Counted from the first letter of the stretch, positions 2 to 18,530 are shown. The stretch: 32,000 nt of DNA from Candidatus Lokiarchaeum ossiferum (GCA_025839675.1 CP104013.1:5220001-5252000), one strand, 5' to 3'. A program made the numbers and translations. Notes: generated by a model not told the origin, from the sequence alone.

Positions 2-3000
2 GAAGACACTCTATTCAAAACTGGAGCGTATGATGAATATAACTTGGATAGTTTCTCTTGGAAAATTTCCGATCTTTTAGATAACAGAGCGGATATCTTG
101 GATATCGATGAAGTTAATGATTACAAATGGAAAATTAAATATCCTATAACAACATTGGAGAGTACCACCCCTGCAATGCCCACCATATCTCCTTCTCCCC
201 GAATCCAGCTTGATTCGTGGGAATCGACTCCAATCATTCCTTCGAATGATCCTGCCCCTATGAAAATGCAATCCAATATGGGTTCGGCTTATATGGAACT
301 CGAATATTCTCTTACCGATTTAAACAAACAAACAAATATAACTTATGATCTTCTGTACAATGGCGGCGATTATCATTCTCCGAGTTATTATGATAACGAC
401 ATTAGTATGTCACAATACGTTGGGACCTCTATTACTGTAGCAGCATGTTCCACAAGTCCTAAACAAGGTGAAACAAGTATTACGTGGACAGATTATCGTA
501 ATACTCACCCGAATTTTGATCAAGTTGTAAGCGATTTGGCATCTTATGCGGAATTTACTGCCGCTTCCAATATATATGAAAAAATGGAAGCCATTGTCAA
601 TTTTGTTGGAGCCAATTTTGTTTATGATCCCGCCAGTGGGTTTCGTCCCGATGAAAATGAAGATCCTTTAGAATGGTTTTGTGAAGGAAAGCAATCGGCA
701 ATGTCATTTGAATTTACTTACTTGACGGTGTCGTTAGCTCGATTAAATAATATTGCAGCAAAGTATGTGTCTGGCTATAAATATAACCCTCTTTTTGAGT
801 TTCAATACGGAGGGGCTTATTCTGATCCTTCTGAAGGGGGGGACGTCGCCTACCCTTATCGAGTTGGAAATTTATATTCATGGGTTGAAGCTTTTATTCC
901 TACCTCTACTACCACTGGTGATTGGGTCTCCTTTGACAATCGATTTGATGCTGAACCCATAATCCCTACTCCTGATGGAGTAAGGTTAAACCTTGATTTT
1001 GGAGGGGCAGCTACTTCAGATTTGGCTGGTGTCCCTCGATTTATTTCTGATTTTCCTCTTGTCGGAAATGTTATCCCTGTTGAATTGACCTATACAATGC
1101 AAGGGTCAGCAATCCAAAATCAGAAAATAACTGTCAGTGATACCACATATGGCGAAGTTATTGGCGATTTTTATACCGGTCAAGGTGGAATTGGAACTTA
1201 TGAGATTGAACTTGAAAATCTGGTCCCTGGTACCCATGTATTGAATTTCACAACTACTTATTTGGGATTATCCTTTGGAAATGTTTCGGTTATTAATGTC
1301 TTGGATGACGTCGAAGTTTATTCCACTTTGAGTGACGAATATATCGTGGCTCCCTCAAATCAAGATCAAAATATTGATATTGATGGTTATGTCTGGGATC
1401 CTGTCTTAGGAAAACCAATCAAAAGTGCTCAAGTATCCTTCACCGGGTTAATGCAACCTACTGAGTCTCAACCTACTGAAGAAGTTTTTAATCTTTCACC
1501 CAATATTACGACAACGGTAGAAAATGGTAATGATTACAATTTTACTCTTGCGGCATTGATTCCAGGATTTCCTGTTGAAGATTATGGAAGGGAATACAAA
1601 ATTGTGACTAACTTTGATGGAAAATTCGATCTTTCGGCTGAAATACTTCAATACGCTCTCCCTTATCAGCTCATTTTTGCCGATATTTTTGGAGGGGGAG
1701 AACAAATCTGTACCTTCGATCCCAATGCCAATTTGTCCTTAACAGTAAATAATACGGTTGAGATTTATGATGACGAATACCATCGTTATACTTTTTACAT
1801 TAATAACTCATATTCTGTTAATAACACAGTAGGTACTTATCCTACAGGGCCAACAATTGGAGAACGTGATGGATCCTTTAGTTTATATATCAACGCGACA
1901 ACCGTTTTGGGAACTGGAGGTGAACCCGGTCAAACTATCAATATTTATGATGAAACCGAATCAGATCGTCTAGTTACCTCATTTATTACTGATGGAACGG
2001 GATTTGGTGAAATTTCGCATGATATCGCTGCTGAAGCTGTAATTAACCCTGAATTTTGGACTGCTGGCCCTCATCTTCTTCGCATAGAATGGGATGAACG
2101 TGCTCTCACATGTTACTCAAAAATATGGATCATGGTTCAAGCTCCGATTTTCATAAATCAAACCACGGAATATTTTGTTGATGGGCAAGGGGGTATTTCC
2201 AATAATCGCTATCTTATCGATTCGGGATCTCCAGCTGATGCTGACGATCTTATTTTACAAGGAACGATTCAAGATAATATTACAGGCGAATTTATTCATG
2301 GGGCCCAGATATATTACCAGTTATTTGATAAATCCTGGAATTTATTACCTTCCACATCGCTAACCACCGGTAATACGGAGGAAATAGTTGGTGCTGCCGA
2401 AGATTTTTATTCCGAATCGTTCTATTTCTCGGGATTGCTTGATACTAATTTGGCTCCCATCAGAACAAACATCAATTTTTCAGGTGAATGGGCTGGTTTG
2501 GGAGATAATTGGAATATTTTGTGGAATTCTTTATGGGGATCCTATTTTGGTGGATTTAATCTTAATAATGATACGAGTGATGGAATCATCCTTCTTGCTG
2601 ATCCAACTGATTATGGAATATCTGGTTTTGTAAATTCTACTAATTTTAATGATTATGATGATGGACAAGTCAATAAGTATTCTACAGTTGTAATCTTAGG
2701 GGACACTCTCAATATTTCAAGTCGCATTTTGACTGATGGAATCCCATTACCCGATGCCGTTGTAACCTTGACAGATAATTCAACTTTTCCATTACAAACT
2801 CTTACGACTGGATCAGATGGTTGGGCCAACTTTTCTCTTCTTATATTCAATAATTCAATCGATCCTGGTGATCATGAATTCACGTTGACGATTACCTTTA
2901 CAAATGGATCCTTCACTTATGTAAACACCTCTATACTCGTAGTTGAGTTTAATCCTTTAATTGGGTTTAATTTTGCTGAACTTCTAAATGGTGCGGATTT

Positions 3001-6000
3001 CACCAGTTATCCTGGACAGATTTATCCTCAAGTGGTATCCATTGGTGACAACATTAATTTCACCGGAAATGTAACTTATACCAAAAATAGTATAATACAA
3101 CAAATTGCTAATGCTAATATATCAATTTATGATAATGGTGTTCTTCTTTACAGTATAATTTCTGATGGTACGGGAGTTTACAATAAGCAAATTATTTTCA
3201 ACAATACATTCACTGAAGGAACTCATATATTTAATTTATCTGTTGAATATAATGGTGGAAGTTTTATCTTTTATGATTCTGCTTTAATGAATGTCACATT
3301 TGATCCAGCTTTAAATTACGGAACAAATTTCTTAGTAGAAGGAATTAATATTGAATCTCTTTCTGCAAATAATTATCCGGTTATCCAATTATTGGGTGAT
3401 TATTTAGATCTTTCAACCTACTTCTTCTATAATGATCCGAGTTCACCTTTAAGTGGAGCTTCCATTACAATTACCGATTCAGTTGCAGGAGTTATAGATA
3501 CTGGTAGTACTGATGCTTCTGGTTATTACAATTTCTCTGTATTTTATGACAGTTCTGTTGCAATAGATCTTCATACGTATACCATTAGCTTGTCTTTTAG
3601 TAATGTTTCGTTTTCAATTGCTAATATCTCAATGGTAATTGTTGATTATCAACCCGCTAATGGATATGTATTCATTCCTCGTATTAATGAAGTTCCCTTT
3701 GATAGCTGGAATAGATATGATCCCCTAAATATTCAAGGACCACAAGATATCTTGAAAGTTTCTTGTGCTTTGTACTATAATTATTCAGGAACTTTGGTTG
3801 GTGTTTCTGGGGTATCTGTGTCTTTAACTCAAGCGGGTGCTAACGGAACAACAATTATTCCTGGCGCAACCGATGGAAACGGATATTTTAATTTTTCCCT
3901 CCAATTTTTAAAACCTGATGCAGCAAATGGATCATATTCCTTTGAATTTGATATTAGCATTACAAATGGAACTTACAGTACCTCCTTTAATAATTTAAGT
4001 TATGTTGAATATGATGAATCTTTACTACATCTGTTCTTAGTTTATTTCAATGATGTTCCTCTCGCTGATATTGGAGGTACTTATGGAGATATTCAACATG
4101 CTGGTGATGTTGTTAATATTTCGGTACAATTTCTCTACGATGAAGGGTCAGGATTAGTCGGTCAAGATGGAGTGACAGTCACCTTTAACATTCCGACTAA
4201 TGGATCCTTTATACCTCAAAATTATATCACCGATAGTAATGGGTGGGTGAATTTCTCCGTATTATTTGACGGGTCGTTTGCAGTCGCCTCCCACAATTTT
4301 AAACTTAGTATGGATAATTCTTCAGCAGAGTATGCATATCAAATTGTTGAAGAAGGAATATGTACTTTCGTTCTAAATCCCGAAGATGATTATACCTTCG
4401 CGCCATTAATAGAAGCAAATCCCTTCGCTAATTATGCACCTTTATACAATTTTGATGCTGTACAAGCCATTGGAGACACCGTTACAATTTCTGGAACACT
4501 TGTTAACTCCAGTACGAATATTCAAGGCGCAACTGTAACTCTTTCAAATTCTTCTGGTCCTATGTTTAGCACTAATACAGATTTAAGCGGTGCTTTTAGC
4601 TTTACAGTAGAATTTAATAATTCAATGGCTATTGGGTTGCAAACTTTTACCGTTGCCATAACCTATATTGATTATTATGGCTTTACTATTGATTTTTCCT
4701 CAAATATTAGAATCGATTTCGATCCTGAACTTGGTTATACATTAGTCGGAAAGGTTGAAGGTAGTGCCATTGCTGATGGAAACCCGTATGTTACTCCGCA
4801 AGAAGTTTCAGACCAATTAACCATAACGGCAGAATATCATTTCTTTGGCTCTGGCGTTGCAAATGTATTGGTGACACTTTCAAATAGTTCTGGTCCTATG
4901 TATACTTCTTTGACAAATGGAGCTGGCGTGGCAACATTTACAATTGAATTTAATAATACAATAAATCCGGGCATACAGACATATACATTAAGTTTGACTA
5001 TTTTAAATGGAACTTGTAGTGTATCAAATACCACCTCCTTTACTATTAATTATGATCCTCTCCTGAGTTATGATCTCGTAGCTCGAATTGATGGTGCTCC
5101 TTATAGTAATCCTGTTCCGAGTAAAAATATAAACGATACCGTAATATTTTCTTATCAACTAATGTTCGACATCGGAGTACCTACCGGTGTTAATACGGCA
5201 ACTGTAAGGTTGTATGTCGATGGAGGACTTTTCGGAACTAATAATACTGGTGTAGGAGGTATTTATACCATTCCCTATACTTTTGTGGATACAACTACGA
5301 CTGGGACTCAGACCTTCCGATTAGAATTAAGTTTTACAAATGGAACCATTATAATTGATGATTTTGAAGCAAATACCATTTATTTTGACCCCTTAGGTGG
5401 TATGACCTATTCTCCCTTAGTTGATGGTGGAAATGATTTTTCAACAACCATTACTAAAACAACTGGTCAATCTGTTATTTTTACCTATCAAATTCAAAAT
5501 AATGGCGTTGCTGTGAGTGGCGTCACCGTTTCGCTTGATGGAGGTCCTTCTGGGAGCACTTTAACTGCCGATACAAATGGTGCGGGAATTGCCACCTTTA
5601 CTATTGCTTTTACGACTGCGATTAACCCCGGACCTTATTATTTCACAATCAGCTTTTCTCACACTTTCGGGATACATCCTGCTGTGGGAACTACAGAAAG
5701 TGTGTGGGTTGTATATGAAGATGCGTTAACTATTACGTATACTAATCCGGGTACAATTGAATTTACTACTGCTAATGATGCATCAGGATTTTCACTTAAT
5801 GGATTAATGGAAGCTTCAAGTAACCGCCCCTTAGTGAATGGAGGTCTTTTAATTGTGACGATAAATAATCCTTCTGCCACGGATGTAACGGATCAATTCA
5901 CGATTATTGGATTGGATTCTTATAATCCACTTGATGGATCATTCTCCATATCTGTTGATCAACTAGTTTCTGCAACCTTGGATGTTGGAAATTATAGTCT

Positions 6001-6433
6001 AATTATTTCTTATTCTGGTGATTTAACGACTGGGCCAGGTGGTTATAGTTATTCTTCAAATCCTTCCAGTTCCGCTTTTGTTTTTGGAGTTTTTGATAAT
6101 CCAGTTATATCGTCCTCTTGGACTCATAATTTGGATCTTCCATACTTTTTACCTAATGTTGCTGGAACTTGGAGCCAAATAAATATTACTGGAGAGCTGA
6201 ATTATTCAAATTCTTCTAATGTGAATATTGATGGACTTGCTATTGAAATATCTATTTACAGTAATAATGGTTTAGTTGAGACGATTACTGTTTATACAGA
6301 TGTTTTTGGTAATTTTGAACTCCTTGATTATGGGGTCACTGAAAACTATTTATATTATACAATTGATTTTGCAGGAAGCACAGATGATTTTCTCTACCCT
6401 GTAGAGGAAACAACGAACTTTACATTTGTATAA
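2..6433 (+). CDS. Giant surface protein (>2,140 aa, N-terminus outside the window): transglutaminase-like core followed by a long array of beta-sandwich (CarboxypepD_reg/Ig-like) modules
   Basis: Uninterrupted 6.4-kb ORF in an AT-rich background. The frame is open from nt 2 (gaa gac act cta ttc aaa act gga gcg tat gat gaa tat aac TTG), so the TTG at 44 is probably internal. Residues ~170-300 match the transglutaminase-core pattern by eye (AMSFEFTYLTVSLARLNNIAAKYVSGY ... YSWVEAF ... WVSFD). The rest is Thr/Asn/Ser-rich with recurring T(D/N)xxG(W/Y/A)xxF(S/T) anchors. About 55 N-x-S/T sequons by hand count. Stop TAA at 6431-6433. Confidence 0.85.
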   Translation, partial: EDTLFKTGAYDEYNLDSFSWKISDLLDNRADILDIDEVNDYKWKIKYPITTLESTTPAMPTISPSPRIQLDSWESTPIIPSNDPAPMKMQSNMGSAYMELEYSLTDLNKQTNITYDLLYNGGDYHSPSYYDNDISMSQYVGTSITVAACSTSPKQGETSITWTDYRNTHPNFDQVVSDLASYAEFTAASNIYEKMEAIVNFVGANFVYDPASGFRPDENEDPLEWFCEGKQSAMSFEFTYLTVSLARLNNIAAKYVSGYKYNPLFEFQYGGAYSDPSEGGDVAYPYRVGNLYSWVEAFIPTSTTTGDWVSFDNRFDAEPIIPTPDGVRLNLDFGGAATSDLAGVPRFISDFPLVGNVIPVELTYTMQGSAIQNQKITVSDTTYGEVIGDFYTGQGGIGTYEIELENLVPGTHVLNFTTTYLGLSFGNVSVINVLDDVEVYSTLSDEYIVAPSNQDQNIDIDGYVWDPVLGKPIKSAQVSFTGLMQPTESQPTEEVFNLSPNITTTVENGNDYNFTLAALIPGFPVEDYGREYKIVTNFDGKFDLSAEILQYALPYQLIFADIFGGGEQICTFDPNANLSLTVNNTVEIYDDEYHRYTFYINNSYSVNNTVGTYPTGPTIGERDGSFSLYINATTVLGTGGEPGQTINIYDETESDRLVTSFITDGTGFGEISHDIAAEAVINPEFWTAGPHLLRIEWDERALTCYSKIWIMVQAPIFINQTTEYFVDGQGGISNNRYLIDSGSPADADDLILQGTIQDNITGEFIHGAQIYYQLFDKSWNLLPSTSLTTGNTEEIVGAAEDFYSESFYFSGLLDTNLAPIRTNINFSGEWAGLGDNWNILWNSLWGSYFGGFNLNNDTSDGIILLADPTDYGISGFVNSTNFNDYDDGQVNKYSTVVILGDTLNISSRILTDGIPLPDAVVTLTDNSTFPLQTLTTGSDGWANFSLLIFNNSIDPGDHEFTLTITFTNGSFTYVNTSILVVEFNPLIGFNFAELLNGADFTSYPGQIYPQVVSIGDNINFTGNVTYTKNSIIQQIANANISIYDNGVLLYSIISDGTGVYNKQIIFNNTFTEGTHIFNLSVEYNGGSFIFYDSALMNVTFDPALNYGTNFLVEGINIESLSANNYPVIQLLGDYLDLSTYFFYNDPSSPLSGASITITDSVAGVIDTGSTDASGYYNFSVFYDSSVAIDLHTYTISLSFSNVSFSIANISMVIVDYQPANGYVFIPRINEVPFDSWNRYDPLNIQGPQDILKVSCALYYNYSGTLVGVSGVSVSLTQAGANGTTIIPGATDGNGYFNFSLQFLKPDAANGSYSFEFDISITNGTYSTSFNNLSYVEYDESLLHLFLVYFNDVPLADIGGTYGDIQHAGDVVNISVQFLYDEGSGLVGQDGVTVTFNIPTNGSFIPQNYITDSNGWVNFSVLFDGSFAVASHNFKLSMDNSSAEYAYQIVEEGICTFVLNPEDDYTFAPLIEANPFANYAPLYNFDAVQAIGDTVTISGTLVNSSTNIQGATVTLSNSSGPMFSTNTDLSGAFSFTVEFNNSMAIGLQTFTVAITYIDYYGFTIDFSSNIRIDFDPELGYTLVGKVEGSAIADGNPYVTPQEVSDQLTITAEYHFFGSGVANVLVTLSNSSGPMYTSLTNGAGVATFTIEFNNTINPGIQTYTLSLTILNGTCSVSNTTSFTINYDPLLSYDLVARIDGAPYSNPVPSKNINDTVIFSYQLMFDIGVPTGVNTATVRLYVDGGLFGTNNTGVGGIYTIPYTFVDTTTTGTQTFRLELSFTNGTIIIDDFEANTIYFDPLGGMTYSPLVDGGNDFSTTITKTTGQSVIFTYQIQNNGVAVSGVTVSLDGGPSGSTLTADTNGAGIATFTIAFTTAINPGPYYFTISFSHTFGIHPAVGTTESVWVVYEDALTITYTNPGTIEFTTANDASGFSLNGLMEASSNRPLVNGGLLIVTINNPSATDVTDQFTIIGLDSYNPLDGSFSISVDQLVSATLDVGNYSLIISYSGDLTTGPGGYSYSSNPSSSAFVFGVFDNPVISSSWTHNLDLPYFLPNVAGTWSQINITGELNYSNSSNVNIDGLAIEISIYSNNGLVETITVYTDVFGNFELLDYGVTENYLYYTIDFAGSTDDFLYPVEETTNFTFV
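2681..5743 (+). repeat. Protein-level tandem array of nine ~110-120-aa beta-sandwich modules inside the giant gene
   Basis: Anchor glycines of the (T/S)(D/N)xxG-aromatic-x-x-F motif fall at aa 926, 1044, 1160, 1280, 1400, 1516, 1628, 1739 and 1848. Spacings are 118, 116, 120, 120, 116, 112, 111 and 109. DNA-level identity is low except for short stretches such as ttctggtcctatgt, shared by the modules starting near 4550 and 4885. Confidence 0.75.
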
Positions 6434-6434
6434 A

Positions 6435-6440
6435 GAGGTG
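6435..6440 (+). promoter_or_regulatory. Shine-Dalgarno-like box (GAGGTG) for the 839-aa gene
   Basis: Located 10 nt upstream of ATG 6451 and 1 nt after the giant gene's stop, which suggests translational coupling. Confidence 0.5.
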
Positions 6441-6450
6441 AATATGATAG

Positions 6451-8970
6451 ATGAACTTAAAGAAACATAAAAACAACGATAAATTGAAATCTATAAGTGT
6501 ATTAGCTACAATGATTCTAATAGGATGTTCTCTTGTTTTTCAAAATGCTATTCAGTTGTCAGCTATTGAAAAGCTAGACGACACTGAGGATTTTTATACA
6601 AATATTGACTTGTCAGTCACCCCCAAATCTGCAGATTCTTCCACTATAAGAGTATATCTATTATCTATTAATCAAACCCATACAAATCGCGGTAAAAATC
6701 TCACGTTTACAGGGTATGTAGAAAAAGTTTCGGGAATTGTTCAAATTGATCCTCTCATTCTCTCCTATAGTAATGAAAGTGGAATTGATGTTTTTCCAAT
6801 AATAGATGGTCATGCTTGTGATGGAAGCGATGGAAATACTATCTTATATCCAAATTTAACTACAAAAACTTCCAATATAAATGGGGATGATGGACAATTT
6901 AGTTTTTCTTATCAAGTGGATTCTTCTTATGATATTGATCAAAACATGATAATAAATGCGAACTGTACAACAGTAGAAGCTGATAATACGTATTTTGGAC
7001 CTGATTCAATAATGAATAGTTCTTTCGTACACGATATCACTGTTGAAACTTTCATTGATATAGATACAAATATTCTTAGTCCTCTTTATGATGGTAATAT
7101 CTTTTATGTCAATTATTCTATTATAGATAATTTGGGAACTTCTCTCGATTTTATTTCTGAGAACATAACAATTTATCGAAACAATTCTTTGGGGGATGAA
7201 CTATTGAATATCACAGAATACAATGTCGACTATCTTACACAGAACGTGAGCATCTCCTATACGCGAGGAACAACGGATATTGGTGTTCATTTTAATGGAA
7301 TTAACGAAACACTTACTAATGGGGAGACTTATTATCAGTATGGTGAATGTAATGCTTCCACGGTTGTGGAATACCTAACTGCACGTGTATTTTTACTTTC
7401 TATGAATCAAACCCACACGCTTAGGGGTAATTCCTTCACTTATTCTGGATATACTCAACAATTAATTAATAACCAGTTTGTCAATATGACGGGTATTGAA
7501 GTTTATCCCATCATTGATGGTAACCATCTTCCGGGGAATTCTATCATTTCTGGGTCTGATGGGTTATTTTCATTTACCGTAAATGTTGCAGCCGATTATG
7601 ATAACACTGTGGATATGACTTTAAATGCAAATATTACTGAAAATATTGGAGATAATGTGATTGTTGGGGTAAGCTCTATCGCTAATTCATCTCTTATCCA
7701 AGATATAACTTCACGAACGAATTTGTCGATTCTCATTGACAATTCCATTCCAAAATTGATCGGCGATGAATTCGATTTAGAAATTACTCTCACCGATGAA
7801 TTGGGTGGCATTTTCACTATTCCAACAAATCGCTTTGAACTTTATCGAAATAGGAATCTTACTTCCACTCTTAGTCAAACAGGAATTAATATTGAAGCTT
7901 TGGATAGCACGGTGTTAATTCAAAACATTGTCCAAGAGAATGGGATGGAACATATAGGAGTTCACTTTCTAGGGGTGCCAACAACTAAACCTGGACAATC
8001 ATATTTAGAGTATCAAGCCTTCAATGCTTCCACATTTATACGAAGGGTTCAAGCAATTAATGGTTCGTTTAGTTTTGCAAACGCGGTACGAAACACGACT
8101 CTTCCCTATGTGTTTACTCAAGGTGATGTTTTCCTAAATGGGACTATTTCTATGGATGAAAATTATACTGTTGTGTCTCAAACTGTGGATTTCTACTTAA
8201 ATGGGCAGTTTATCGGATACACAGAAACCAATGCCGAAGGATACTTTGAATTTACCTTCAACCTTGCAGAAGAAGGATTTGCTGTAAATACTTCTATCGA
8301 TGCTTGTGTAATTACCCTTAATTTACGGAACATGGATTCTGAATATTTGGGGTCAAATACTTCCACCTCAATCAATACTATTACCCTAACAATTGAGGAT
8401 GGGGTGCCGTATGTGGCGCCAACTAACACATCTTTGATAGCGGGGGATGTTCCCTTAAAATGGATGAATATTGTCTACGTGGGATTGGGGGTGGTAGCCC
8501 TTGTTGTGGGTTTAGTCATCTTCCAACGTCAACGGATGGATCGATCTTCTAAAAGGGATCGTAAGTTGCGAAAGGTGGATTATTCCCGATTTGAAAATGT
8601 GAATGTCTTATATAATCAAGGGCGGAGACGGGAAGCAATTGCCTATACCTACAAAATCTTCGCTGATTTGATTAATGAAAAATATGGGTTGGTTAGAGAA
8701 GAACATGAAACGATTCGAGTGTTTGCGATTACTTGTGTCACGAAATATGGGCTCGATCCTATGCGAACGTATCCGTATTTAGCGCTCGTTGAAAATATTG
8801 TTTATGGGTTTTACGATTTAAATCTTGAAGCGTTTAAAAAATCAATGCTGGTGTTTGGAAGAGTTTTCCAAGAAATCACGGGAACAATGTTAGAATTTAC
8901 GTTAATTGAGAGTTCAGACGGTGGATTAGAATCTGAACAAACTTTAAAAATTGGAGCGGTGAGTGAATAA
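6451..8970 (+). CDS. Type-I membrane surface protein (839 aa): N-terminal signal/anchor, internally duplicated sequon-rich ectodomain, one TM helix, cytoplasmic DUF4129-like tail
   Basis: ATG lies 10 nt after a GAGGTG box. K-rich n-region plus hydrophobic ISVLATMILIGCSLVF. Two ~230-aa repeat units. TM helix WMNIVYVGLGVVALVVGLVIFQ (nt 8461-8526) followed by an R/K-rich stop-transfer. The tail REAIAYTYKIFADLINEKYGL...YPYLALVENIVYG fits the DUF4129 helical pattern. Confidence 0.8.
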   Translation: MNLKKHKNNDKLKSISVLATMILIGCSLVFQNAIQLSAIEKLDDTEDFYTNIDLSVTPKSADSSTIRVYLLSINQTHTNRGKNLTFTGYVEKVSGIVQIDPLILSYSNESGIDVFPIIDGHACDGSDGNTILYPNLTTKTSNINGDDGQFSFSYQVDSSYDIDQNMIINANCTTVEADNTYFGPDSIMNSSFVHDITVETFIDIDTNILSPLYDGNIFYVNYSIIDNLGTSLDFISENITIYRNNSLGDELLNITEYNVDYLTQNVSISYTRGTTDIGVHFNGINETLTNGETYYQYGECNASTVVEYLTARVFLLSMNQTHTLRGNSFTYSGYTQQLINNQFVNMTGIEVYPIIDGNHLPGNSIISGSDGLFSFTVNVAADYDNTVDMTLNANITENIGDNVIVGVSSIANSSLIQDITSRTNLSILIDNSIPKLIGDEFDLEITLTDELGGIFTIPTNRFELYRNRNLTSTLSQTGINIEALDSTVLIQNIVQENGMEHIGVHFLGVPTTKPGQSYLEYQAFNASTFIRRVQAINGSFSFANAVRNTTLPYVFTQGDVFLNGTISMDENYTVVSQTVDFYLNGQFIGYTETNAEGYFEFTFNLAEEGFAVNTSIDACVITLNLRNMDSEYLGSNTSTSINTITLTIEDGVPYVAPTNTSLIAGDVPLKWMNIVYVGLGVVALVVGLVIFQRQRMDRSSKRDRKLRKVDYSRFENVNVLYNQGRRREAIAYTYKIFADLINEKYGLVREEHETIRVFAITCVTKYGLDPMRTYPYLALVENIVYGFYDLNLEAFKKSMLVFGRVFQEITGTMLEFTLIESSDGGLESEQTLKIGAVSE
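6640..8046 (+). repeat. Internal duplication of a ~230-aa ectodomain unit in the 839-aa protein
   Basis: Matching landmark pairs: STIRVYLLSINQTHTNRGKNLTFTGY / TARVFLLSMNQTHTLRGNSFTYSGY; VFPIIDGH / VYPIIDGNH; GDDGQFSFSYQV...INANCT / GSDGLFSFTVNV...LNANIT; IGVHFNGI / IGVHFLGV; YGECNAST / YQAFNAST. Confidence 0.8.
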
Positions 8971-9037
8971 ATCCCCCCCATAAAAATAATCTCCAAGTGA
9001 GCTAAAACATTTAAGTGAAAAAATAAAAGAGAATCAT

Positions 9038-9042
9038 AGGTG
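9038..9042 (+). promoter_or_regulatory. Shine-Dalgarno-like box (AGGTG) for the 119-aa gene
   Basis: Located 6 nt upstream of ATG 9049. Confidence 0.45.
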
Positions 9043-9048
9043 TAAATT

Positions 9049-9408
9049 ATGGCAAGAAAGAAAAAAGGTGGCGGTTTTGATCTCGGTCAAAAATTGAATA
9101 ACATCAAGACTTTGAACGAAACAAAACGCCCAAAAGAAGCAATTGCTTATGAATACATGTTATTTGTAATGCTTTGCACTGCAAAATACAAAGAACGGAA
9201 ATTACCTTCTCAAAGCGTAAGAGATTATGCAATGAAAATGGTGAAAGAACATGATATGGATCCAACCATTGTTTATCCTTTCATTCAAGCAGTGGAAGAA
9301 GTGATCTATGGTGGAAAACCTTCCAATCCTGAAGTATTCCAAAAATCGTTGGTAGAATTTGGAAAAGTATTTGAATTCCTTGTTGGAAAACCTCTTCCTC
9401 CTATGTAA
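9049..9408 (+). CDS. Small soluble DUF4129-like protein (119 aa), paralogue of the cytoplasmic tail of the preceding gene
   Basis: AGGTG box 6 nt upstream of the ATG. KEAIAYEYMLF...KY...DP..VYPFIQAVEEVIYG...F.KSLVEFGKVF aligns residue-for-residue by eye with aa ~725-812 of the 839-aa protein. No hydrophobic segment. Confidence 0.7.
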   Translation: MARKKKGGGFDLGQKLNNIKTLNETKRPKEAIAYEYMLFVMLCTAKYKERKLPSQSVRDYAMKMVKEHDMDPTIVYPFIQAVEEVIYGGKPSNPEVFQKSLVEFGKVFEFLVGKPLPPM

Positions 9409-9447
9409 AATTTTTTAAAAAAAATTACCACAAAAAGTGAACAAGAA

Positions 9448-11991
9448 ATGAAAAATCCTGGCTGGTTAATTACGATTTTAAGTCTACCTTTGATTGCTGT
9501 CGGTGTCGTTTTCCTAACAATTAATTTTGGTACAACTGGAATAATTATTGGGAGTGTCCTGGCTGGATTGGGGGCATTGACATTTATTGGAGGGTTTTCC
9601 CGGTTAATTCAAGGTAAAAATCGTAAAATTATGGGTCAACTTATACGTCCTAAAGCTGCTGCCCGTGGATCGGCCGTATGGGCTTTTTTTTGTATAAATA
9701 TCACCCCATTATTGCTCGGTAATAATGCATTATTGGAATATCTTCAGGCTCCACCGCTTCCTTTAGTATTATTGCTCGGGCCAAAAAATATTGTACTCCT
9801 CGCATATATGTGGCTACCCGCTGTAATGATTATTCTTTTAATTTTTTGGGTGATAGGGATGATTTTTTCGGCTAAAATTCCTAAGATATATAATATTTAT
9901 AATAATTTTATCATTACTATCTGTTTTACTTTTTGGTTGAACTTTGGCTCTCAATTTTTCCTTTGGGCGGTTACGCTTAATAAAGATTTAATTTTACTGA
10001 TGGATCCTTGGAAGACTGCCACCACTATTCAAGAGGTTATCGTTCCCTTAGCAATCGGGGGAGCAGTTGTACTGGTTTCTCTTATTTTCACCCTTCGTTC
10101 CTTAAATAAACTTCAACAGTCCTTTTTAAATTTGAATATTTCAGGTAAAACAAAAATTATTATGATTGTTGCTCTCGTGGTAGTATATTCTGCTACCCTC
10201 TTTCCATTGTATTTTAGCGTTAAAGCTTGCATTACTACTACTGCTTTATTAGTTTCTTATCTAAATTATATTCCTCTTATCTTTATGGCAATTGTTGCCT
10301 TCAGTGCTATTTCTTCTCTTTCGAGCGCAACAAAAAATATTTCCACAGAAAGAATTGCTTCCGGAGAATCTGGGTCAAAATCGAGTTTTGGGATAAAAAC
10401 CGCTTTGATGGTCATGGTTCTTATCTTGATGTGGCTTCCTATCGTATATCCAGTAGTTGATGGTGGTGAAAATAAAAAAACGAATTCCATATACAATCCT
10501 CTTTGGAATGGGTGGTCTAATTTTCGGGAAGCCTTAGAAGCGGATACTGAGGATGGTGGATATACTGTGATGTCTGTCCAATCCTCTTTAAGTACTATTT
10601 CTCAGCTGGATAAAACGAAACAAGTTATTTTGGTCATACCCGGTCCCAATGTGTTCTACAATCCTGCAGCGGAAGTTCCCTACCTCTTAGAAGCTTTTAG
10701 TTCGAATTTTTCGATGTTCATTTGCGATGATCATGGAACCACAGAAACTTTAATGACTGAAATGTTTGCAGCTTCTATAGGTGTTTTGGGATTCGAACAC
10801 GCTACACCCTTAACATTCTTTCCCAAAGGTATTTTGTATGAAAACAATACCTACAGTAATGGAGATCCTATGTACTGGAAAAATCCTACCTTTCCGATCA
10901 TTTCTGATTTTCCCGCACATGAAATAAATCAAGGTATTGATCAAGTCGTTTTGGGGCAAGCAACTGCTTTCTTAGGGGGAAGTATGTTAAATATGTTAGG
11001 TTGGAACTTCATTGGTCAGACATCTGGATCTTATTCTTATATTGATACATCTGGCGATGGGATGTATGATCCTTTAGAAGATGTATACACTCTCGGAGGA
11101 AATATAGGGGATGTTTTAACTAGTGTATCTTCCGATAATGCGGAAATGGGAATTGCAACAACGATGCTTAAAGGTGGTTTTCCATTAGGTGGTTATGAAC
11201 AAGCTGTATTTAGCACCAAAGATATGGGTGTAAATGTTGCCGCTATTAACGGGGTGCATTCAAATCGTGTGTTTTGCGCCACTGATGCAAGTTGGCTTAA
11301 TAATGAATTAACGAGTATTGACGAGTTTGATAATTTACAAATGGGCTTAAATGCAATGGATTGGTTAACTTGTGGAAGGGCTCATTCTGATGTAATTGTG
11401 GTGTTTGACGAAGCACATATTACTCTTGATGAACAAGAATCTCTTTTTGGTGTAAACCTTGCGGGGCGTACGGAAATAAATTCGGCAGCATCATTTGGAG
11501 CGGTTCAAGGATATGTAAATTGGTTATCGACAAACCCCATTTTAGGGTTGGTCTATCCACTTTTTGCTTTACAAACTTTACGTAAATGGATTCCAAAAGA
11601 AGGAAATAAGAAAAAAATCCAATTAAAAGATTTGGAAGCTGCTGAGCGGGAAAAATCAATTCTAAAATTCAGGACTTCCTCATTTTTCGCTCAAAAAATC
11701 AATTGGTATCGTCAACATAAAAAATATAATCAAGCTTTATTACAACTATATCGTCGAATGGAGCGCAAATTGAATCGGTTATTAGGAAATTCTGGTGATC
11801 GGAGCATTGATGCGATTCTACGAGCGATTAGAGTTGAACGAGGAAAATATTTGTCCAAAGATCATTTTAATCGGATCAAAAGGTTCCTTGAAATGATGTT
11901 TGATATCAAGCGAAATAAAACCGTAATAAAAGAAGAACGAGAATTTGAGACACTCTTTATGGAAATGTCTTGGGTAAACGATCATATTTAA
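9448..11991 (+). CDS. Polytopic membrane protein with a large DUF4350 (GldG-like) extracytoplasmic domain (847 aa)
   Basis: First ~330 aa contain about 8 hydrophobic helices. aa ~345-700 carry DUF4350/GldG-type landmarks: KQVILVIPGPNVFYNPAAEVPYLLEAF...MFICDDHG, DNLQMGLNAMDWL, VIVVFDEAH. A further hydrophobic helix (NPILGLVYPLFALQTL) precedes a basic helical C-terminal tail. Confidence 0.7.
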   Translation: MKNPGWLITILSLPLIAVGVVFLTINFGTTGIIIGSVLAGLGALTFIGGFSRLIQGKNRKIMGQLIRPKAAARGSAVWAFFCINITPLLLGNNALLEYLQAPPLPLVLLLGPKNIVLLAYMWLPAVMIILLIFWVIGMIFSAKIPKIYNIYNNFIITICFTFWLNFGSQFFLWAVTLNKDLILLMDPWKTATTIQEVIVPLAIGGAVVLVSLIFTLRSLNKLQQSFLNLNISGKTKIIMIVALVVVYSATLFPLYFSVKACITTTALLVSYLNYIPLIFMAIVAFSAISSLSSATKNISTERIASGESGSKSSFGIKTALMVMVLILMWLPIVYPVVDGGENKKTNSIYNPLWNGWSNFREALEADTEDGGYTVMSVQSSLSTISQLDKTKQVILVIPGPNVFYNPAAEVPYLLEAFSSNFSMFICDDHGTTETLMTEMFAASIGVLGFEHATPLTFFPKGILYENNTYSNGDPMYWKNPTFPIISDFPAHEINQGIDQVVLGQATAFLGGSMLNMLGWNFIGQTSGSYSYIDTSGDGMYDPLEDVYTLGGNIGDVLTSVSSDNAEMGIATTMLKGGFPLGGYEQAVFSTKDMGVNVAAINGVHSNRVFCATDASWLNNELTSIDEFDNLQMGLNAMDWLTCGRAHSDVIVVFDEAHITLDEQESLFGVNLAGRTEINSAASFGAVQGYVNWLSTNPILGLVYPLFALQTLRKWIPKEGNKKKIQLKDLEAAEREKSILKFRTSSFFAQKINWYRQHKKYNQALLQLYRRMERKLNRLLGNSGDRSIDAILRAIRVERGKYLSKDHFNRIKRFLEMMFDIKRNKTVIKEEREFETLFMEMSWVNDHI

Positions 11992-12005
11992 TTTTTTTAA
12001 AACTA

Positions 12006-12012
12006 GGAAGGT
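12006..12012 (+). promoter_or_regulatory. Shine-Dalgarno-like box (GGAAGGT) for moxR
   Basis: Located 8 nt upstream of ATG 12021. Confidence 0.45.
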
Positions 12013-12020
12013 AAAAAAAA

Positions 12021-12980
12021 ATGGCAGAAGTATATGAAGAAGCAGATATCGGCATTGTGCGAGAGATTGCGCAGGATGTCATGAGTGAAGTGGGCCGCGT
12101 TGTCGTTGGACTCGGTGAAGTGCTCCAATACCTATTTATTGGGCTCCTCACCAACGGGCACATTTTGTTAGAAGGAGTGCCGGGACTTGCAAAGACCGTC
12201 ACCGCCAAAACGTTCGCCGAAGCCCTCGGTATCACGTTTAATCGAATTCAATTTACTCCGGATTTACTCCCCAGTGATTGTACCGGTTCCATGGTGTTTG
12301 ACCAATCCAAGGGTGATTTTGTAATCCGTAAAGGTCCACTCTTTTCGAATATTGTGTTGGCAGACGAAATCAACCGGACTGCACCGAAAACACAAGCGGC
12401 ATTGCTTGAAGCGATGGGAGAAAAACAAGTCACAATTGAGGGGAAGACCTATAATTTAGAAAAACCGTTTCAAGTGGTTGCCACCCAAAACCCTGTGGAG
12501 CAAGAAGGGACCTACCCACTGCCCGAAGCACAATTAGATCGATTCTTATTTAAATTGTGGTTAGATTATCCGCCAGAAGAGGAAGAAATCGAAATTATGG
12601 CGCGCCAACTGAGTGGGAACAATATAGTGATTGATCCAGTGACGAACGCCGAAGAAATCGTGGAATTACAACGCTTGGTGAATACGGTGTATATGGATCA
12701 CATAATTTTGGAATATATTAAAGATATTGTGTTCAAGACCCGAAACGATCCACAGATCGCCATTGGAGCAGGTCCGCGGGCCAGTTTAACCTTAATGAAA
12801 TGTGCCAAGGCAAGAGCGTCAATCTTAGGGCGAGATTATGTCACACCAGATGATGTGAAGGAATTATGTGTGCCCGTATTAAATCACCGCCTCGGATTGA
12901 AGGCAGAAGCGGAATTAGAAGGCTTAACAACCACAGCAGTCATTAATCGAATTTTAAATGAAGTGGTTGTGCCGATTTAA
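12021..12980 (+). CDS. moxR: MoxR-family AAA+ ATPase (319 aa)
   Basis: Walker A GVPGLAKT (nt 12174-12197), Walker B VLADEINR, TQNPVEQEGTYPLPEAQLDRF sensor/arginine region, and typical ~320-aa MoxR length. GGAAGGT box 8 nt upstream of the ATG. Confidence 0.95.
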   Translation: MAEVYEEADIGIVREIAQDVMSEVGRVVVGLGEVLQYLFIGLLTNGHILLEGVPGLAKTVTAKTFAEALGITFNRIQFTPDLLPSDCTGSMVFDQSKGDFVIRKGPLFSNIVLADEINRTAPKTQAALLEAMGEKQVTIEGKTYNLEKPFQVVATQNPVEQEGTYPLPEAQLDRFLFKLWLDYPPEEEEIEIMARQLSGNNIVIDPVTNAEEIVELQRLVNTVYMDHIILEYIKDIVFKTRNDPQIAIGAGPRASLTLMKCAKARASILGRDYVTPDDVKELCVPVLNHRLGLKAEAELEGLTTTAVINRILNEVVVPI

Positions 12981-12998
12981 AGAATCAAAACCTTCCTA

Positions 12999-13005
12999 TT
13001 TTTTT
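12999..13005 (+). terminator. T7 tract 18 nt after the moxR stop (oligo-T termination-type signal)
   Basis: cctaTTTTTTTac. I see no adjacent GC-rich hairpin. Confidence 0.3.
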
Positions 13006-13044
13006 ACATAAATCATAAAATAAGATATAAACGAGAGAAATAAC

Positions 13045-14373
13045 ATGCTGGGCGGAAAAGGACGTTCGTTGGTAGTATTAGGGACATTTTTATTGACTGC
13101 GGGATTCAGTTTTAAAAACTATTATTTAATTATTTGCGGCGTGTTCTTTCTGTTTGCGACATTCATTTCATTGCCTGCTTTTGAAAGTTCAATGAATATC
13201 GATGAATTGCATGTCACACGTGAAATCGACAATACACGTGTATTCCGCGATGACTTTATGCATATAAAGGTCATCATCAAAAACACTGGGGGAAATAAAT
13301 TCGATTTCTTAGATATATTTGATCAATTTCCAGCAAAAGCATTTCGGTTAGTTACGGGCGAAAACTATATCAGTACCCGAATTGATCCACATAAAACAAT
13401 CAAATTTTCCTACGTACTCGCACCTCGAGTGCGTGGAGAATTTGAATTTGGTCCATTAGAAGTAACCGTCCGAGATCGGCTAGGTTTTAATGCGGAAAAG
13501 CGAATTGTCCCCAAATCATTAACTGACATTATAATTTATCCTCCTTACGAACAAATTCGTGCCTTGGAATTGATGGGGGCACAACGTGCTATGGCAATGT
13601 CCTTCGGTATTCACCAAACGAAGAAAAAAGGGACGGGGACGGATTTACGAAATTTACGCCAATATGTCGCAGGAGATCAATTCCGGTTAATTGACTGGAA
13701 AGCGAGTATGCGATTACAAAAATTAATTGTTCGTGAGTTTGAAAGTGAAAGGAATGTATCAACAATCATATTAATCGATTCAAGTGAATCAATGGCTGGT
13801 GGGGCCGTAGATGCGACGAAATTTGAATATTCAATTAAATCTGCTATGTTACTCGCAAAAATTGCGATGGAACAGAAAGATCAAGTTGGAATCGCAACCT
13901 TTTCGGATAGAAGTAATTTTCGATGGCTGGCTCCCACTACTAAACGCAGTCATTTTTATGATATTATTAATTTTCTGGGAGAAATTACTCCTCAAGGTAA
14001 GAAAGAAATCTATTGGTCCATAGAAGAGTTTTCCCGCTCTTGGGATAAACGGAGTTTGGTCTTTTTAATCACCGATTTAGAGATTGCACAGTTAGATGTA
14101 CTTGCAGCCTTTCGGAAATTGAAATCTTATGGTCATGCAGTATGTGTTATCTCACCATTTTCACCGTGGTTTGAAATCCATGAATTAGAATTAACATCGA
14201 CAGATAAAGCCCTTGCAGAAGCTATCTCCGAAGAAATGATGTTACACATTGTGAATATTAAAAAGGATTCTCAAAAATTAGGTGTTCCTGTTATTTCTGT
14301 CGCTCCTGATGATATGTTTGAAGTGATTATGGCAGAATATCAAGAATCCAAACGGGTAGGAAAAGCAGAATAA
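13045..14373 (+). CDS. DUF58 family protein with vWA-like domain and an intact MIDAS motif (442 aa)
   Basis: Two N-terminal hydrophobic helices. Signature LRQYVAGDQFRLIDWKASMRLQKLIVREFESE (nt 13645-13752), followed by ILIDSSESM (a DxSxS MIDAS motif). Sits in the canonical position immediately downstream of moxR. Confidence 0.9.
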   Translation: MLGGKGRSLVVLGTFLLTAGFSFKNYYLIICGVFFLFATFISLPAFESSMNIDELHVTREIDNTRVFRDDFMHIKVIIKNTGGNKFDFLDIFDQFPAKAFRLVTGENYISTRIDPHKTIKFSYVLAPRVRGEFEFGPLEVTVRDRLGFNAEKRIVPKSLTDIIIYPPYEQIRALELMGAQRAMAMSFGIHQTKKKGTGTDLRNLRQYVAGDQFRLIDWKASMRLQKLIVREFESERNVSTIILIDSSESMAGGAVDATKFEYSIKSAMLLAKIAMEQKDQVGIATFSDRSNFRWLAPTTKRSHFYDIINFLGEITPQGKKEIYWSIEEFSRSWDKRSLVFLITDLEIAQLDVLAAFRKLKSYGHAVCVISPFSPWFEIHELELTSTDKALAEAISEEMMLHIVNIKKDSQKLGVPVISVAPDDMFEVIMAEYQESKRVGKAE

Positions 14374-14376
14374 AAG

Positions 14377-14385
14377 TTTTTTTTT
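14377..14385 (+). terminator. T9 tract 3 nt after the DUF58 stop
   Basis: taaaagTTTTTTTTTatt. Confidence 0.35.
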
Positions 14386-14433
14386 ATTATTACATATTGA
14401 AATGTAGGAAAATCATAGAAGGAAGAAAAGGGT

Positions 14434-15990
14434 ATGGCAAAAAATTACTTATTGATAGGGTTACGAATTACCTCCATTGCTTTATTAGTTTTGTTAATAA
14501 TTCAGCTAGGATTGATCTATAATCCAGAGATTTTTAATTTCTGGAATATTATGAGTATTATTGGGGATTTACGTGATATTTTTGCCTATGTTATGTATAT
14601 CGCATTGTATGGGATCTTTACAGGGATTTCCTTTGGGTTTTCTGCCGTTTTTAGTGTATTGGGTGCTGTTTTTAGTGCGGATTATTTCATTAATTTTGTA
14701 AATTCCGTTTTCTCAAATATGGTGGGAAATTGGTTTTACTTACCTAACTATAATCCAGATACAATGGTGGCTACTCCTGCTTTACTCGCCCCAACTCTTG
14801 CAGAATCATTATCTGGGTTACAATTTCTCTTTGCGGAGATAACTGAAGATCTTTACATGGTTCTTCTTCAAATTTGTATTGTTATTATGTTCTATCATGC
14901 ATTACGTGGAACAATTACTAGTGACCCCGGTCAAAGCATTAAAGTTATTGTTTATATTAATCTTATCATTATCGTTCCCCTATTTTTCAGACAAATCGAC
15001 ATTGTTCTAAACATGTTTTCCTCGTTCTTTGCAGAAATGCCTGAATGGTACACAAATCTGATAGAAAAAGATTTATTGCAACCTGAGATTTTTGTTGATA
15101 TTAAAGACTTGACTTTTGGTGGATTTTTAACCTCGAGTATTTTCTTAGTTGCAACTACAATGTTTGTCTATTTAGAATTTGTGTTCCAATTGGCTTATGT
15201 GGATAGTGTGACGACACCTTCAGTCGAACGGGAATTACGTTTGAATCGCCAAATTGATGTGATGCATACCGAAGCAGAAAAAGCCATTTCACGGATCAAG
15301 GCTATTGAAGAAATGAAACGAGAAAAAAAAGCGCAAAAGCGTCTTAACATAACCGATGAGGATCGTCAGGCTCAAAAGGAAGAAGAAGAACGCTTATCGT
15401 TGAGCGCATTGATGTCAGATAAGGCTGAATCGGTGGGTTTTTCCTTTATTGCTGAATTAATTGCCAAGAAAAAGGCGGAAAAAAATGAACAAGTGATAAT
15501 GGATGCTATGAAAGATACTCGACGTGTGGCGCACTATCTTGAAAAATTATTTAAACAAGATAAAGAAGCGCGAAATACATTGACTGCTAAAGCAGCATCA
15601 CCAAAGGCATCTCGTTTAATTGCATCCACGCTGATTAACATGTTGACACGCATTGTTCTTATTACTGCAATCATGTGGGTTGTAGTACATCCCTATAACT
15701 TTTTTGCTTTTCTTCGATCACCCGATGCAATTCTGAAAAGCGTGGAGTTGCAAACGGTGGAATCGACGTTATCCGTGTTATTGCCGTTTCTCCTTATTAT
15801 TCCGATGATTTCCAGTGTTATTCGAGTAACCAAACATAATAAACTAAAAGAAATGTTGAGATTGGAGGAATTACAAAGAGCAGGTTTAACAGAAGAAGAA
15901 TTGTTGGCATTGGAGTCTTCACGGGGTGTAGTTGATGAGAGTGGGGTACAGATGGCTCAAGATGCTGATGCTTCGGCCAGTCGGGCTTAA
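14434..15990 (+). CDS. Membrane protein with central Lys/Glu-rich coiled-coil (518 aa); no family recognised
   Basis: Long ORF with a GAAGGAAG box upstream. About 6 N-terminal hydrophobic helices. Charged helical region aa ~262-395 (EKAISRIKAIEEMKREKKAQKRL...QKEEEERL). Two more helices, then an acidic tail. Confidence 0.7.
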   Translation: MAKNYLLIGLRITSIALLVLLIIQLGLIYNPEIFNFWNIMSIIGDLRDIFAYVMYIALYGIFTGISFGFSAVFSVLGAVFSADYFINFVNSVFSNMVGNWFYLPNYNPDTMVATPALLAPTLAESLSGLQFLFAEITEDLYMVLLQICIVIMFYHALRGTITSDPGQSIKVIVYINLIIIVPLFFRQIDIVLNMFSSFFAEMPEWYTNLIEKDLLQPEIFVDIKDLTFGGFLTSSIFLVATTMFVYLEFVFQLAYVDSVTTPSVERELRLNRQIDVMHTEAEKAISRIKAIEEMKREKKAQKRLNITDEDRQAQKEEEERLSLSALMSDKAESVGFSFIAELIAKKKAEKNEQVIMDAMKDTRRVAHYLEKLFKQDKEARNTLTAKAASPKASRLIASTLINMLTRIVLITAIMWVVVHPYNFFAFLRSPDAILKSVELQTVESTLSVLLPFLLIIPMISSVIRVTKHNKLKEMLRLEELQRAGLTEEELLALESSRGVVDESGVQMAQDADASASRA

Positions 15991-18478: not shown

Positions 18479-18530
18479 TTATTATGATCAAAATGTTTAG
18501 GTTGCTATAAATTCTCGGAAAGAATGTGGT

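Follow-up and report, generated by a model that had tools for sequence, protein, structure and literature searches.

A MoxR-DUF58 gene cluster beside a giant, hypervariable surface protein: a candidate envelope module of Asgard archaea

What brings a MoxR-type ATPase and a DUF58 adaptor together with a giant surface protein in an archaeon, and what could the resulting set of genes do? The question arises from seven genes, numbered g1 to g7 in the 5' to 3' direction, at positions 2-15990 of a 32,000-nucleotide (nt) stretch of Candidatus Lokiarchaeum ossiferum DNA (GCA_025839675.1 CP104013.1:5220001-5252000), the whole of which is referred to here as the window. No known relatives of eukaryotes are closer than the Asgard archaea, whose cultured members have no S-layer and carry elaborate surface proteins, which are thought to mediate cell-cell contacts relevant to eukaryogenesis. 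The reading that we prefer, with a probability of roughly 45%, is that the cluster encodes an envelope module, conserved in Asgard archaea, in which a MoxR ATPase and a partner with a von Willebrand factor A (vWA) domain assist the assembly or anchoring of the giant surface protein. This reading draws on conserved linkage, on the predicted topology and on the general behaviour of MoxR-vWA pairs, which is background knowledge. The genes, with protein lengths in amino acids (aa), are the following:

2..6433 (first in-frame TTG at 44), + strand: g1, giant surface protein, its left end cut by the window edge
6451..8970, + strand: g2, 839 aa, second surface protein
9049..9408, + strand: g3, 119 aa, free DUF4129-family protein
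9448..11991, + strand: g4, 847 aa, polytopic domain plus DUF4350
12021..12980, + strand: g5, 319 aa, MoxR (MRP-type) AAA+ ATPase
13045..14373, + strand: g6, 442 aa, DUF58 protein with a vWA domain
14434..15990, + strand: g7, 518 aa, membrane protein with a coiled-coil insert

A listing of the open reading frames (ORFs) of the window returned these seven co-directional genes at the coordinates proposed in an earlier note on this DNA, and reproduced all six of the short gaps it had given (17, 78, 39, 29, 64 and 60 nt from g1 to g7). That note had also seen nothing credible on the opposite strand, where the sole ORF of at least 80 aa is one of 92 aa at the g4/g5 junction (11957..12235), and it had read GGTG-type ribosome-binding boxes, which are present upstream of g2 (AGAGGTGA) and g3 (TAGGTG). 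The products of g3 and g4 correspond to the L. ossiferum entries NEF87_004458 and NEF87_004459, respectively (100% identical), and cluster proteins are also found in the closed 6.27-Mb genome GCA_041410205.1 and in several sequencing runs.

Both of the assignments previously made for the ATPase and adaptor pair were recovered in Pfam. The g5 protein matches AAA_3 (213 bits) and AAA_lid_2 (84 bits), aligns with PDB 2r44 (E 4e-91) and has intact Walker A (GVPGLAKT) and Walker B (VLADEINR) motifs. The g6 gene, 64 nt downstream, encodes a protein that matches DUF58 (103 bits) and VWA_2 (38 bits) and consists of an N-terminal hydrophobic hairpin, a TRAP_beta/BatD-like beta-sandwich and a vWA domain with the DxSxS motif (LIDSSES) of a metal-ion-dependent adhesion site (MIDAS); a sequence search gave no solved relative for DUF58. 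Judged by their motifs, both the ATPase and the MIDAS are active-looking. The MoxR gene has a higher G+C content (44.5%, window 12001-13000) than its neighbours (32-39%), which fits the strong conservation of MoxR across Lokiarchaeia (82-91% identity).

MoxR-vWA systems of biological conflict have reportedly been described by Kaur et al. in 2020, and the cluster could be an anti-virus or conflict system of that type, with its variable surface proteins as decoys or sensors. The bpMoxR model of Pfam does score 34 bits on g5, above its cut-off of 27, and the ectodomains encoded by the cluster are hypervariable, as is described below. Nevertheless, AAA_3 fits g5 far better, the cluster has no beta-propeller or effector domain, PADLOC yields merely two weak P-loop matches (E >5e-4), and the locus is a single-copy, vertically inherited core locus that does not lie in a defence island. 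We consider this explanation very improbable and the weakest of those weighed here.

The protein that such an ATPase might service is encoded by g1, whose full length of 2,327 aa was obtained from an identical Logan contig (L007:3000-9983). It has a basic N-terminus, one transmembrane (TM) anchor, an acidic linker, a transglutaminase-fold domain and then immunoglobulin (Ig)-like repeats, and hydrophobic-segment analysis places no anchor at the C-terminus. Pfam models support this layout (Transglut_core 39.6 bits, with a cut-off of 23; CarboxypepD_reg 53 bits; bMG3 48 bits), and at least 11 Ig-like repeats of the CarboxypepD_reg/bMG3/MG4/SdrD_B types are present, at least 10 in tandem and one further upstream. 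The domains lie as follows:

560..937, + strand: Transglut_core domain of g1, residues 187-312 of the window protein
2699..5743, + strand: ten tandem Ig-like repeats of ~95 aa in g1, full-length residues 1084-2098, from iterated hmmsearch

With 57 NxS/T sequons (z=4.7 against shuffles) and a lysine plus arginine (K+R) content of 2.6%, g1 accords with the glycoprotein-like ectodomain of more than 2,100 aa that had been described from its sequence, and the CarboxypepD_reg assignment made then also holds. The claim that a transglutaminase core heads this ectodomain stands for the fold and fails for the catalytic centre. The profile of the fold matches PDB 3isr (E 5e-5) and, less strongly, TgpA 6g49 (E 0.15), and the catalytic Cys of these proteins (GVCRDF in 3isr, GFCAHY in TgpA) aligns with Ser in L. 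ossiferum g1 (AMSFEF). A single-sequence alignment to 3isr and a profile alignment to 3isr and Pseudomonas aeruginosa TgpA 6g49 agree on this position, which is occupied by Pro in nine other Lokiarchaeia homologues and in a Thorarchaeota homologue. The His of the HxW motif is probably lost as well, its position being taken by Y, Q, M or D (e.g. YSW, YTW, DAW), a motif reading that is less certain than that of the Cys. Thus, the transglutaminase fold of g1 looks catalytically dead and would be a scaffold or binding module rather than an enzyme; with the nucleophile missing, there is no ground for assuming transglutaminase or protease chemistry.

The second surface protein, g2, begins with an N-terminal signal/anchor followed by a 640-aa, internally duplicated and sequon-rich ectodomain (27 NxS/T, z=4.9 against the composition expectation), and then crosses the membrane (aa 673-691, nt 8467-8523) to end in a cytoplasmic DUF4129-like tail (nt ~8554-8895). 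The g2 ectodomain (6451-8460) falls into two duplicated halves of ~270 aa, each starting RV(Y/F)LLS(I/M)NQTHT..RG, and it matches no family in Pfam or in the further family searches of the window proteins. The g3 protein has no TM segment and is a paralogue of the g2 tail (BLASTP 34% identity, E 1e-22). DUF4129 (PF13559) scores below threshold on the g3 of the window (13 bits, E 0.097) and matches 12 of the 21 members of the g3/g2-tail family, the best with E 1.4e-5; the Thorarchaeota orthologue of g3 (BLASTP E 1e-10 to g3) reaches 53.4 bits against a cut-off of 24.8, and UniRef lists g3 under the name DUF4129. Hence, a DUF4129 identity for g3 and the g2 tail, as proposed earlier for both a cytoplasmic tail and a free 119-aa protein, is secure at the family level. 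The family profile matched no solved structure.

The g4 protein combines an N-terminal domain of ~9 TM segments (aa 1-340) with an extracytoplasmic, GldG/ABC_transp_aux-like DUF4350 domain (aa ~341-694), and, past one further TM segment, a cytoplasmic tail that is basic and helical (aa ~713-847). On g4 of the window DUF4350 scores 18 bits, below its cut-off of 30.4; it matches 13 of the 15 g4 family members, and the Thorarchaeota orthologue, a protein of 463 aa with a signal peptide, a DUF4350 ectodomain, one TM segment and a homologous basic tail, reaches 42 bits for DUF4350 and 49 bits for ABC_transp_aux/GldG. The profile evidence makes the DUF4350 identity of g4 secure at the family level, and the fusion of DUF4350 to a polytopic domain, already suspected, is found as expected. 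Two other candidate identities were tried and rejected for parts of g4: its tail is not a third DUF4129 copy (BLASTP gave no alignment and hhalign a probability of 1.7%), and its polytopic domain finds no support as the DUF3488 domain of TgpA, which no g4-family member matches. These two results reduce the proposal that the TgpA architecture was taken apart and redistributed over the cluster to a parallel between domain inventories.

The cluster closes with g7, the extra coiled-coil membrane protein of the earlier description, which is all-helical and has ~8 TM segments and a long cytoplasmic coiled-coil insert (aa ~250-390). It matches no Pfam family and no PDB entry, and single weak matches to DUF2207_C and EMC3_TMCO1 were dismissed because they are not common to 32 family members. 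An exhaustive profile search gave 109 representative relatives, of which the named ones belong to Promethearchaeota, Thorarchaeota and Helarchaeota; g7 is a new Asgard-restricted membrane family.

How these proteins are arranged across the membrane can be approached through their composition. The ectodomains of g1 and g2 and the DUF4350 domain of g4 contain 2.6-3.4% K+R, and an extracellular solute-binding protein (SBP) of the same window, used as a control, 3.8%; g3, g5, g6 and the tails contain 9-24%, and the cytoplasmic controls (Tex, acyl-CoA synthetases and GH4) 11.6-13.6%. NxS/T sequons exceed the composition expectation in g1 and g2 only. The inside/outside picture drawn beforehand therefore agrees with hydrophobic segments, the positive-inside rule, K+R content and sequon enrichment alike. 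For g6, a K+R content of 13.6%, which is of the cytoplasmic type and resembles the cytoplasmic controls, argues that the DUF58 protein is cytoplasmic and not secreted.

The exposed parts are also those that vary. When two L. ossiferum genomes are compared, g3 to g7 are 98.9-100% identical and the flanking DNA ~98%, whereas g1 is 83.5% and g2 76.2% identical, and one stretch differs far more:

5930..7310, + strand: hypervariable segment, running from ~130 aa before the end of g1 to ~300 aa into g2

In this segment protein identity falls to 14-56% and blastn finds no alignment (against L001:3940-5296). The cassette is sharply bounded, and recombination seems to have exchanged the exposed tips of g1 and g2 here. 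Across Lokiarchaeia, g1 retains 22-36% identity and ranges from 1,235 to 2,381 aa, and MoxR keeps 82-91%. This variability of g1 and g2 is the signature that would be expected of an exposed, diversifying surface component.

Such a contrast between hypervariable ectodomains and nearly invariant cytoplasmic parts also speaks for integrin-like transmembrane signalling or control of adhesion, in which the binding of ligands, partner cells or viruses by the g1/g2 ectodomains would be passed on outside-in through the DUF4129 tails to DUF58 and MoxR, or else MoxR would switch the conformation of the adhesins inside-out. A vWA/MIDAS domain at the membrane, the tetratricopeptide repeat (TPR) and leucine-rich repeat (LRR) proteins inserted beside MoxR in relatives, and the bifidobacterial PFNA operon, whose fibronectin type III (FN3) adhesin, MoxR, DUF58 and Tgm have been discussed in terms of host-signal recognition (PMC6803598), point the same way. 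However, no output domain, such as that of a kinase or response regulator, is encoded in the cluster and the likeness is one of analogy only, so that we regard signalling as improbable.

The giant gene had been expected to co-localize with the MoxR-DUF58 pair in related genomes. Sixteen distinct Lokiarchaeia loci were annotated by BLASTP, 13 from a scan of species-representative genomes and three from exact look-ups; the g4, g3 and g7 families retrieved by a word-indexed search are all from Lokiarchaeia/Promethearchaeota. With the exception of L024, whose transglutaminase gene does not adjoin the others, g1-g2-g3-g4 are contiguous in each of these loci, and MoxR follows g4 directly in 12 of the 16. 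DUF58 and g7 are adjacent wherever both are visible (9/9) and follow MoxR either directly or past inserts of 2-7.5 kb that carry a TPR protein, an LRR protein or, in Harpocratesius, resolvase-type mobile DNA. A Thorarchaeota metagenome contig has six of the seven genes in the order giant dead-transglutaminase/Ig-repeat protein, TM-DUF4129 protein (149 aa), DUF4350, MoxR, DUF58 and g7-like protein, at identities of 24-54% overall (MoxR 54%, DUF58 39%, g7-like 30%). The same gene order thus occurs in at least 12 independent Lokiarchaeia genomes or metagenome-assembled genomes (MAGs) and on one Thorarchaeota contig, so the cluster is not a chance arrangement, and the expected co-localization holds in two Asgard classes. 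Since the Thorarchaeota contig lacks both g2 and the eight extra TM segments of g4, these would be Lokiarchaeia additions.

The loci of relatives offer further observations. A TPR orthologue stands directly after MoxR in three Lokiarchaeia lineages (L011:13686-15416; L021:13636-15318 and 16885-17742; L018:4700-6013), P. syntrophicum MK-D1 has a TPR plus an LRR protein there, and L. ossiferum has neither; because Bat-type MoxR operons also include TPR proteins, the TPR protein may be an optional component. In Candidatus Harpocratesius repetitus (L010/L020:13800-20900), ~7.5 kb with a DEAD-box helicase and a resolvase/MerR-type gene separate MoxR from DUF58, and the cluster appears split by a mobile element, not destroyed. 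A 5.8-kb contig labelled as a Planctomycetota MAG (L025, JAJRVU010000430.1) carries homologues of g4-g5-g6-g7 in the Asgard order (44, 68, 52 and 33% identity) and is probably an Asgard contig placed in the wrong bin, not a copy from a bacterium. Upstream of the window, two archaellin-type (PF01917) genes lie ~2 kb before g1 (L007:1-909), with an M24 peptidase and a thymidylate kinase gene in between, the latter also near the cluster in L011 and L012.

Taking topology and linkage together, the proposed envelope module could be arranged and could work as follows. Outside the cell would be g1, the g2 ectodomain and the DUF4350 ectodomain of g4; the membrane would hold g7, the polytopic part of g4 and the anchor segments of both g1 and g2; and the cytoplasmic face would carry the DUF4129 tail of g2, g3, the basic tail of g4, the coiled coil of g7, the membrane-tethered g6, and g5. 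By analogy with other MoxR-vWA pairs, the MIDAS of g6 could dock onto an acidic residue of a cytoplasmic tail, for which the DUF4129 domains would be the best candidates and the g4 tail and g7 coiled coil the others. In turn, g6 would recruit the g5 MoxR hexamer, and ATP hydrolysis by the latter would assemble, mature or remodel a membrane base formed by g2, g4 and g7. This base would then hold or position g1 through non-catalytic contacts with its dead transglutaminase fold or with DUF4350. Of the ATP-driven assembly machine that the earlier note envisaged, the topology and the co-localization are thus borne out; the machine itself, with its physical contacts, its direction of action and its role in surface assembly, is what we infer.

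Several observations weigh against this reading. Four diverged loci (L012, L022, L023 and L024) have no MoxR, DUF58 or g7 nearby, and unrelated metabolic genes follow g4, so the g1-g4 block (g2-g4 in L024) and the MoxR/DUF58/g7 block can be encoded apart. The tracts of six to nine T that had been reported after genes 3 to 6 were found, with one more after g7: they stand immediately 3' of the stops of g3, g4, g6 and g7 and 19 nt past that of g5, and inspection of the window junctions gave none after g1 or g2. Comparable oligo-T tracts follow g3, g4, g5 and g7 in other Lokiarchaeia loci, and their conservation suggests several transcription units; punctuated transcription of the cluster is plausible given that the tracts follow g3-g7 and recur in relatives. 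The AlphaFold2 models of g4 and g7 are of moderate quality (pLDDT 64 and 69, respectively) and match nothing in the PDB, thus adding no structural support for any mechanism. Finally, the glycoproteome of P. syntrophicum shows little glycosylation overall, and proteins of this kind are not reported among the abundant ones (PMC11284389).

The first of these points raises the question of whether two unrelated modules are simply neighbours: one for the surface (g1-g4) and one of general chaperone function (MoxR-DUF58-g7) with other clients. The separation of the blocks in the four loci, the tolerance of insertions of 2-7.5 kb, including mobile DNA, between MoxR and DUF58, and the oligo-T tracts between genes all favour this. 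Nevertheless, the order has been kept between Lokiarchaeia and Thorarchaeota at just 24-54% protein identity, and linkage of DUF4350, MoxR and vWA genes is general in archaea (PMC5898192); we give mere neighbourhood only a slight chance.

The cluster could also encode a dedicated secretion or export apparatus, in which g4, g7 and g2 would be the conduit or platform and MoxR and DUF58 would power or chaperone the export of g1. The great size of g1, which has an N-terminal anchor only, and the ABC_transp_aux/GldG match of the Thorarchaeota DUF4350 orthologue (49 bits) would suit such a function. However, MoxR ATPases are known as maturation chaperones and not as translocation motors, the signal/anchor segments of g1 and g2 are ordinary and suited to Sec, Pfam searches and structure comparison recognized no channel-like fold or secretion ATPase, and g1-g4 (g2-g4 in L024) occur without an ATPase nearby in four loci. 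On the other side, a prediction published in 2015 and covering the same core genes included secretion (PMC5898192), and MoxR1 of Mycobacterium tuberculosis has been reported to assist twin-arginine translocation (TAT) export of RipA (PMC12067865). On balance, we think export unlikely.

As to what the envelope module might correspond to in the cell, L. ossiferum has no S-layer and displays 'complex surface proteins' in cryo-electron tomography (cryo-ET; PMC9834061). The S-layer candidates predicted for P. syntrophicum went undetected, and a single solute-binding protein was the dominant carrier of glycosylation there (PMC11284389). A bolder proposal, which we see as a long shot, is that the cluster encodes one of the complex surface structures seen by cryo-ET on L. 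ossiferum together with an Asgard-specific, inside-out, ATP-driven device in which MoxR, the DUF58 MIDAS, the DUF4129 tails and g7 control the display or shape of a giant hypervariable adhesin. If true, this would give integrin-like regulated adhesion a prokaryotic counterpart, serving syntrophic contacts or virus evasion. Short of this, the cluster provides a concrete candidate set of genes, which cultured strains possess and whose conservation extends from Lokiarchaeia to Thorarchaeota, that joins a giant, fast-diversifying surface protein with an ATPase/adaptor pair likely to service it.

Further genes of the window lie downstream of the cluster:

17804-19445, - strand: RNase_H_2 (PF13482) exonuclease-like gene beside a 224-aa ORF without family
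19565-20113, + strand: Mut7-C RNase-domain gene, divergent from the RNase_H_2 gene and the 224-aa ORF
21266-23557, - strand: full-length bacterial-type Tex (Tex_N, YqgF, HHH, S1), which also neighbours the cluster in L011
23771-26422, - strand: 883-aa surface protein that joins an SBP_bac_5 solute-binding domain to a run of calcium-binding repeats of the bacterial thrombospondin type-3 (TSP3) kind and is anchored by a TM segment at its C-terminus
26573-28399 and 28608-30443, - strand: tandem pair of paralogous genes for long-chain acyl-CoA synthetases (AMP-binding)

The SBP_bac_5/TSP3 protein belongs to the class of the dominant glycoprotein of P. syntrophicum, yet it has few sequons (1 per 205 aa).

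How far, then, does the cluster resemble what is already known? In the searchable literature, no paper was found that connects MoxR to Asgard archaea or deals with this locus. The system is nevertheless not of a newly recognized kind: its core was predicted in 2015 (PMC5898192), and related bacterial trios are known (PMC6803598). Makarova, Galperin and Koonin (2015, PMC5898192) described neighbourhoods of arCOG01314 (DUF4350) in which MoxR is accompanied by an Ig+vWA protein, S-layer-like proteins rich in Ig domains and small membrane proteins, and proposed that archaea have here a novel complex for secretion or membrane remodelling; the paper names no transglutaminase and no DUF4129. In both that system and the cluster, a DUF4350 protein whose flavodoxin/GldG-like domain is extracellular and which has a TM segment towards its C-terminus shares one neighbourhood with MoxR, an Ig+vWA (DUF58) protein, Ig-rich surface proteins and small polytopic membrane proteins. 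The composition of g6 argues for a cytoplasmic vWA domain, whereas a secreted one was proposed in 2015 (PMC5898192). The cluster differs further in that its surface component is one giant repeat protein headed by a dead transglutaminase fold, in that the Lokiarchaeia DUF4350 protein has ~9 TM segments at its N-terminus (about eight of them gained) instead of a signal peptide, and in that it closes with the Asgard-only g7. The arCOG01314 system includes pfam07760/DUF1616 membrane proteins, which Pfam does not detect among the window proteins.

In bacteria, TgpA and Tgm are polytopic proteins with DUF4129 on the same chain. Trios of MoxR (MRP), DUF58 and transglutaminase are a recognized bacterial pattern (PMC6803598, PMC12067865), and the PFNA operon of Bifidobacterium (pkb2-fn3-aaa_atp-duf58-tgm) adds an FN3 adhesin to the trio (PMC6803598). 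As in the TgpA neighbourhoods and PFNA, the cluster links MoxR and DUF58 with a transglutaminase-fold membrane protein that DUF4129 accompanies, and it shares with PFNA a repeat-rich surface protein. In contrast to TgpA, its fold has no catalytic Cys and is carried by g1, a giant with a single TM segment, DUF4129 is found on g2 and g3, and no DUF3488 was detected in g1 or in any g4-family member. PFNA has both a Ser/Thr kinase and FN3 domains, neither of which Pfam finds in the cluster, so that PFNA is an analogy only.

The MoxR-vWA pairs RavA-ViaA, CbbQ-CbbO, NorQ-NorD and BchI-BchD combine an AAA+ hexamer with a vWA/MIDAS adaptor that docks onto a client. Their clients are soluble or respiratory enzymes that undergo maturation of a cofactor or metal site, whereas the cluster has no metal-enzyme and its sole candidate clients are the cytoplasmic tails of surface and membrane proteins. 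With the Bacteroides aerotolerance (Bat) operons, which comprise MoxR, DUF58, BatA/B vWA membrane proteins and TPR proteins, the cluster shares the MoxR-DUF58 core, membrane partners and, in several Lokiarchaeia relatives, a TPR protein beside MoxR, and the beta-sandwich of g6 weakly resembles BatD. However, it has no BatA/BatB-type TM-vWA proteins, L. ossiferum has no TPR gene there, and Bat operons lack the giant surface protein as well as DUF4129, DUF4350 and g7.

The cluster is, therefore, an Asgard-specific version of a known type of gene cluster without an explained function, distinguished by a dead transglutaminase fold on a hypervariable giant, by DUF4129 on separate proteins, by the union of DUF4350 with a polytopic domain, and by g7. 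It is a natural test case for the widespread MoxR-DUF58-(transglutaminase/DUF4129/DUF4350) neighbourhoods, and the loss of the active site here argues that, in these systems, the transglutaminase fold can be a scaffold and not an enzyme.

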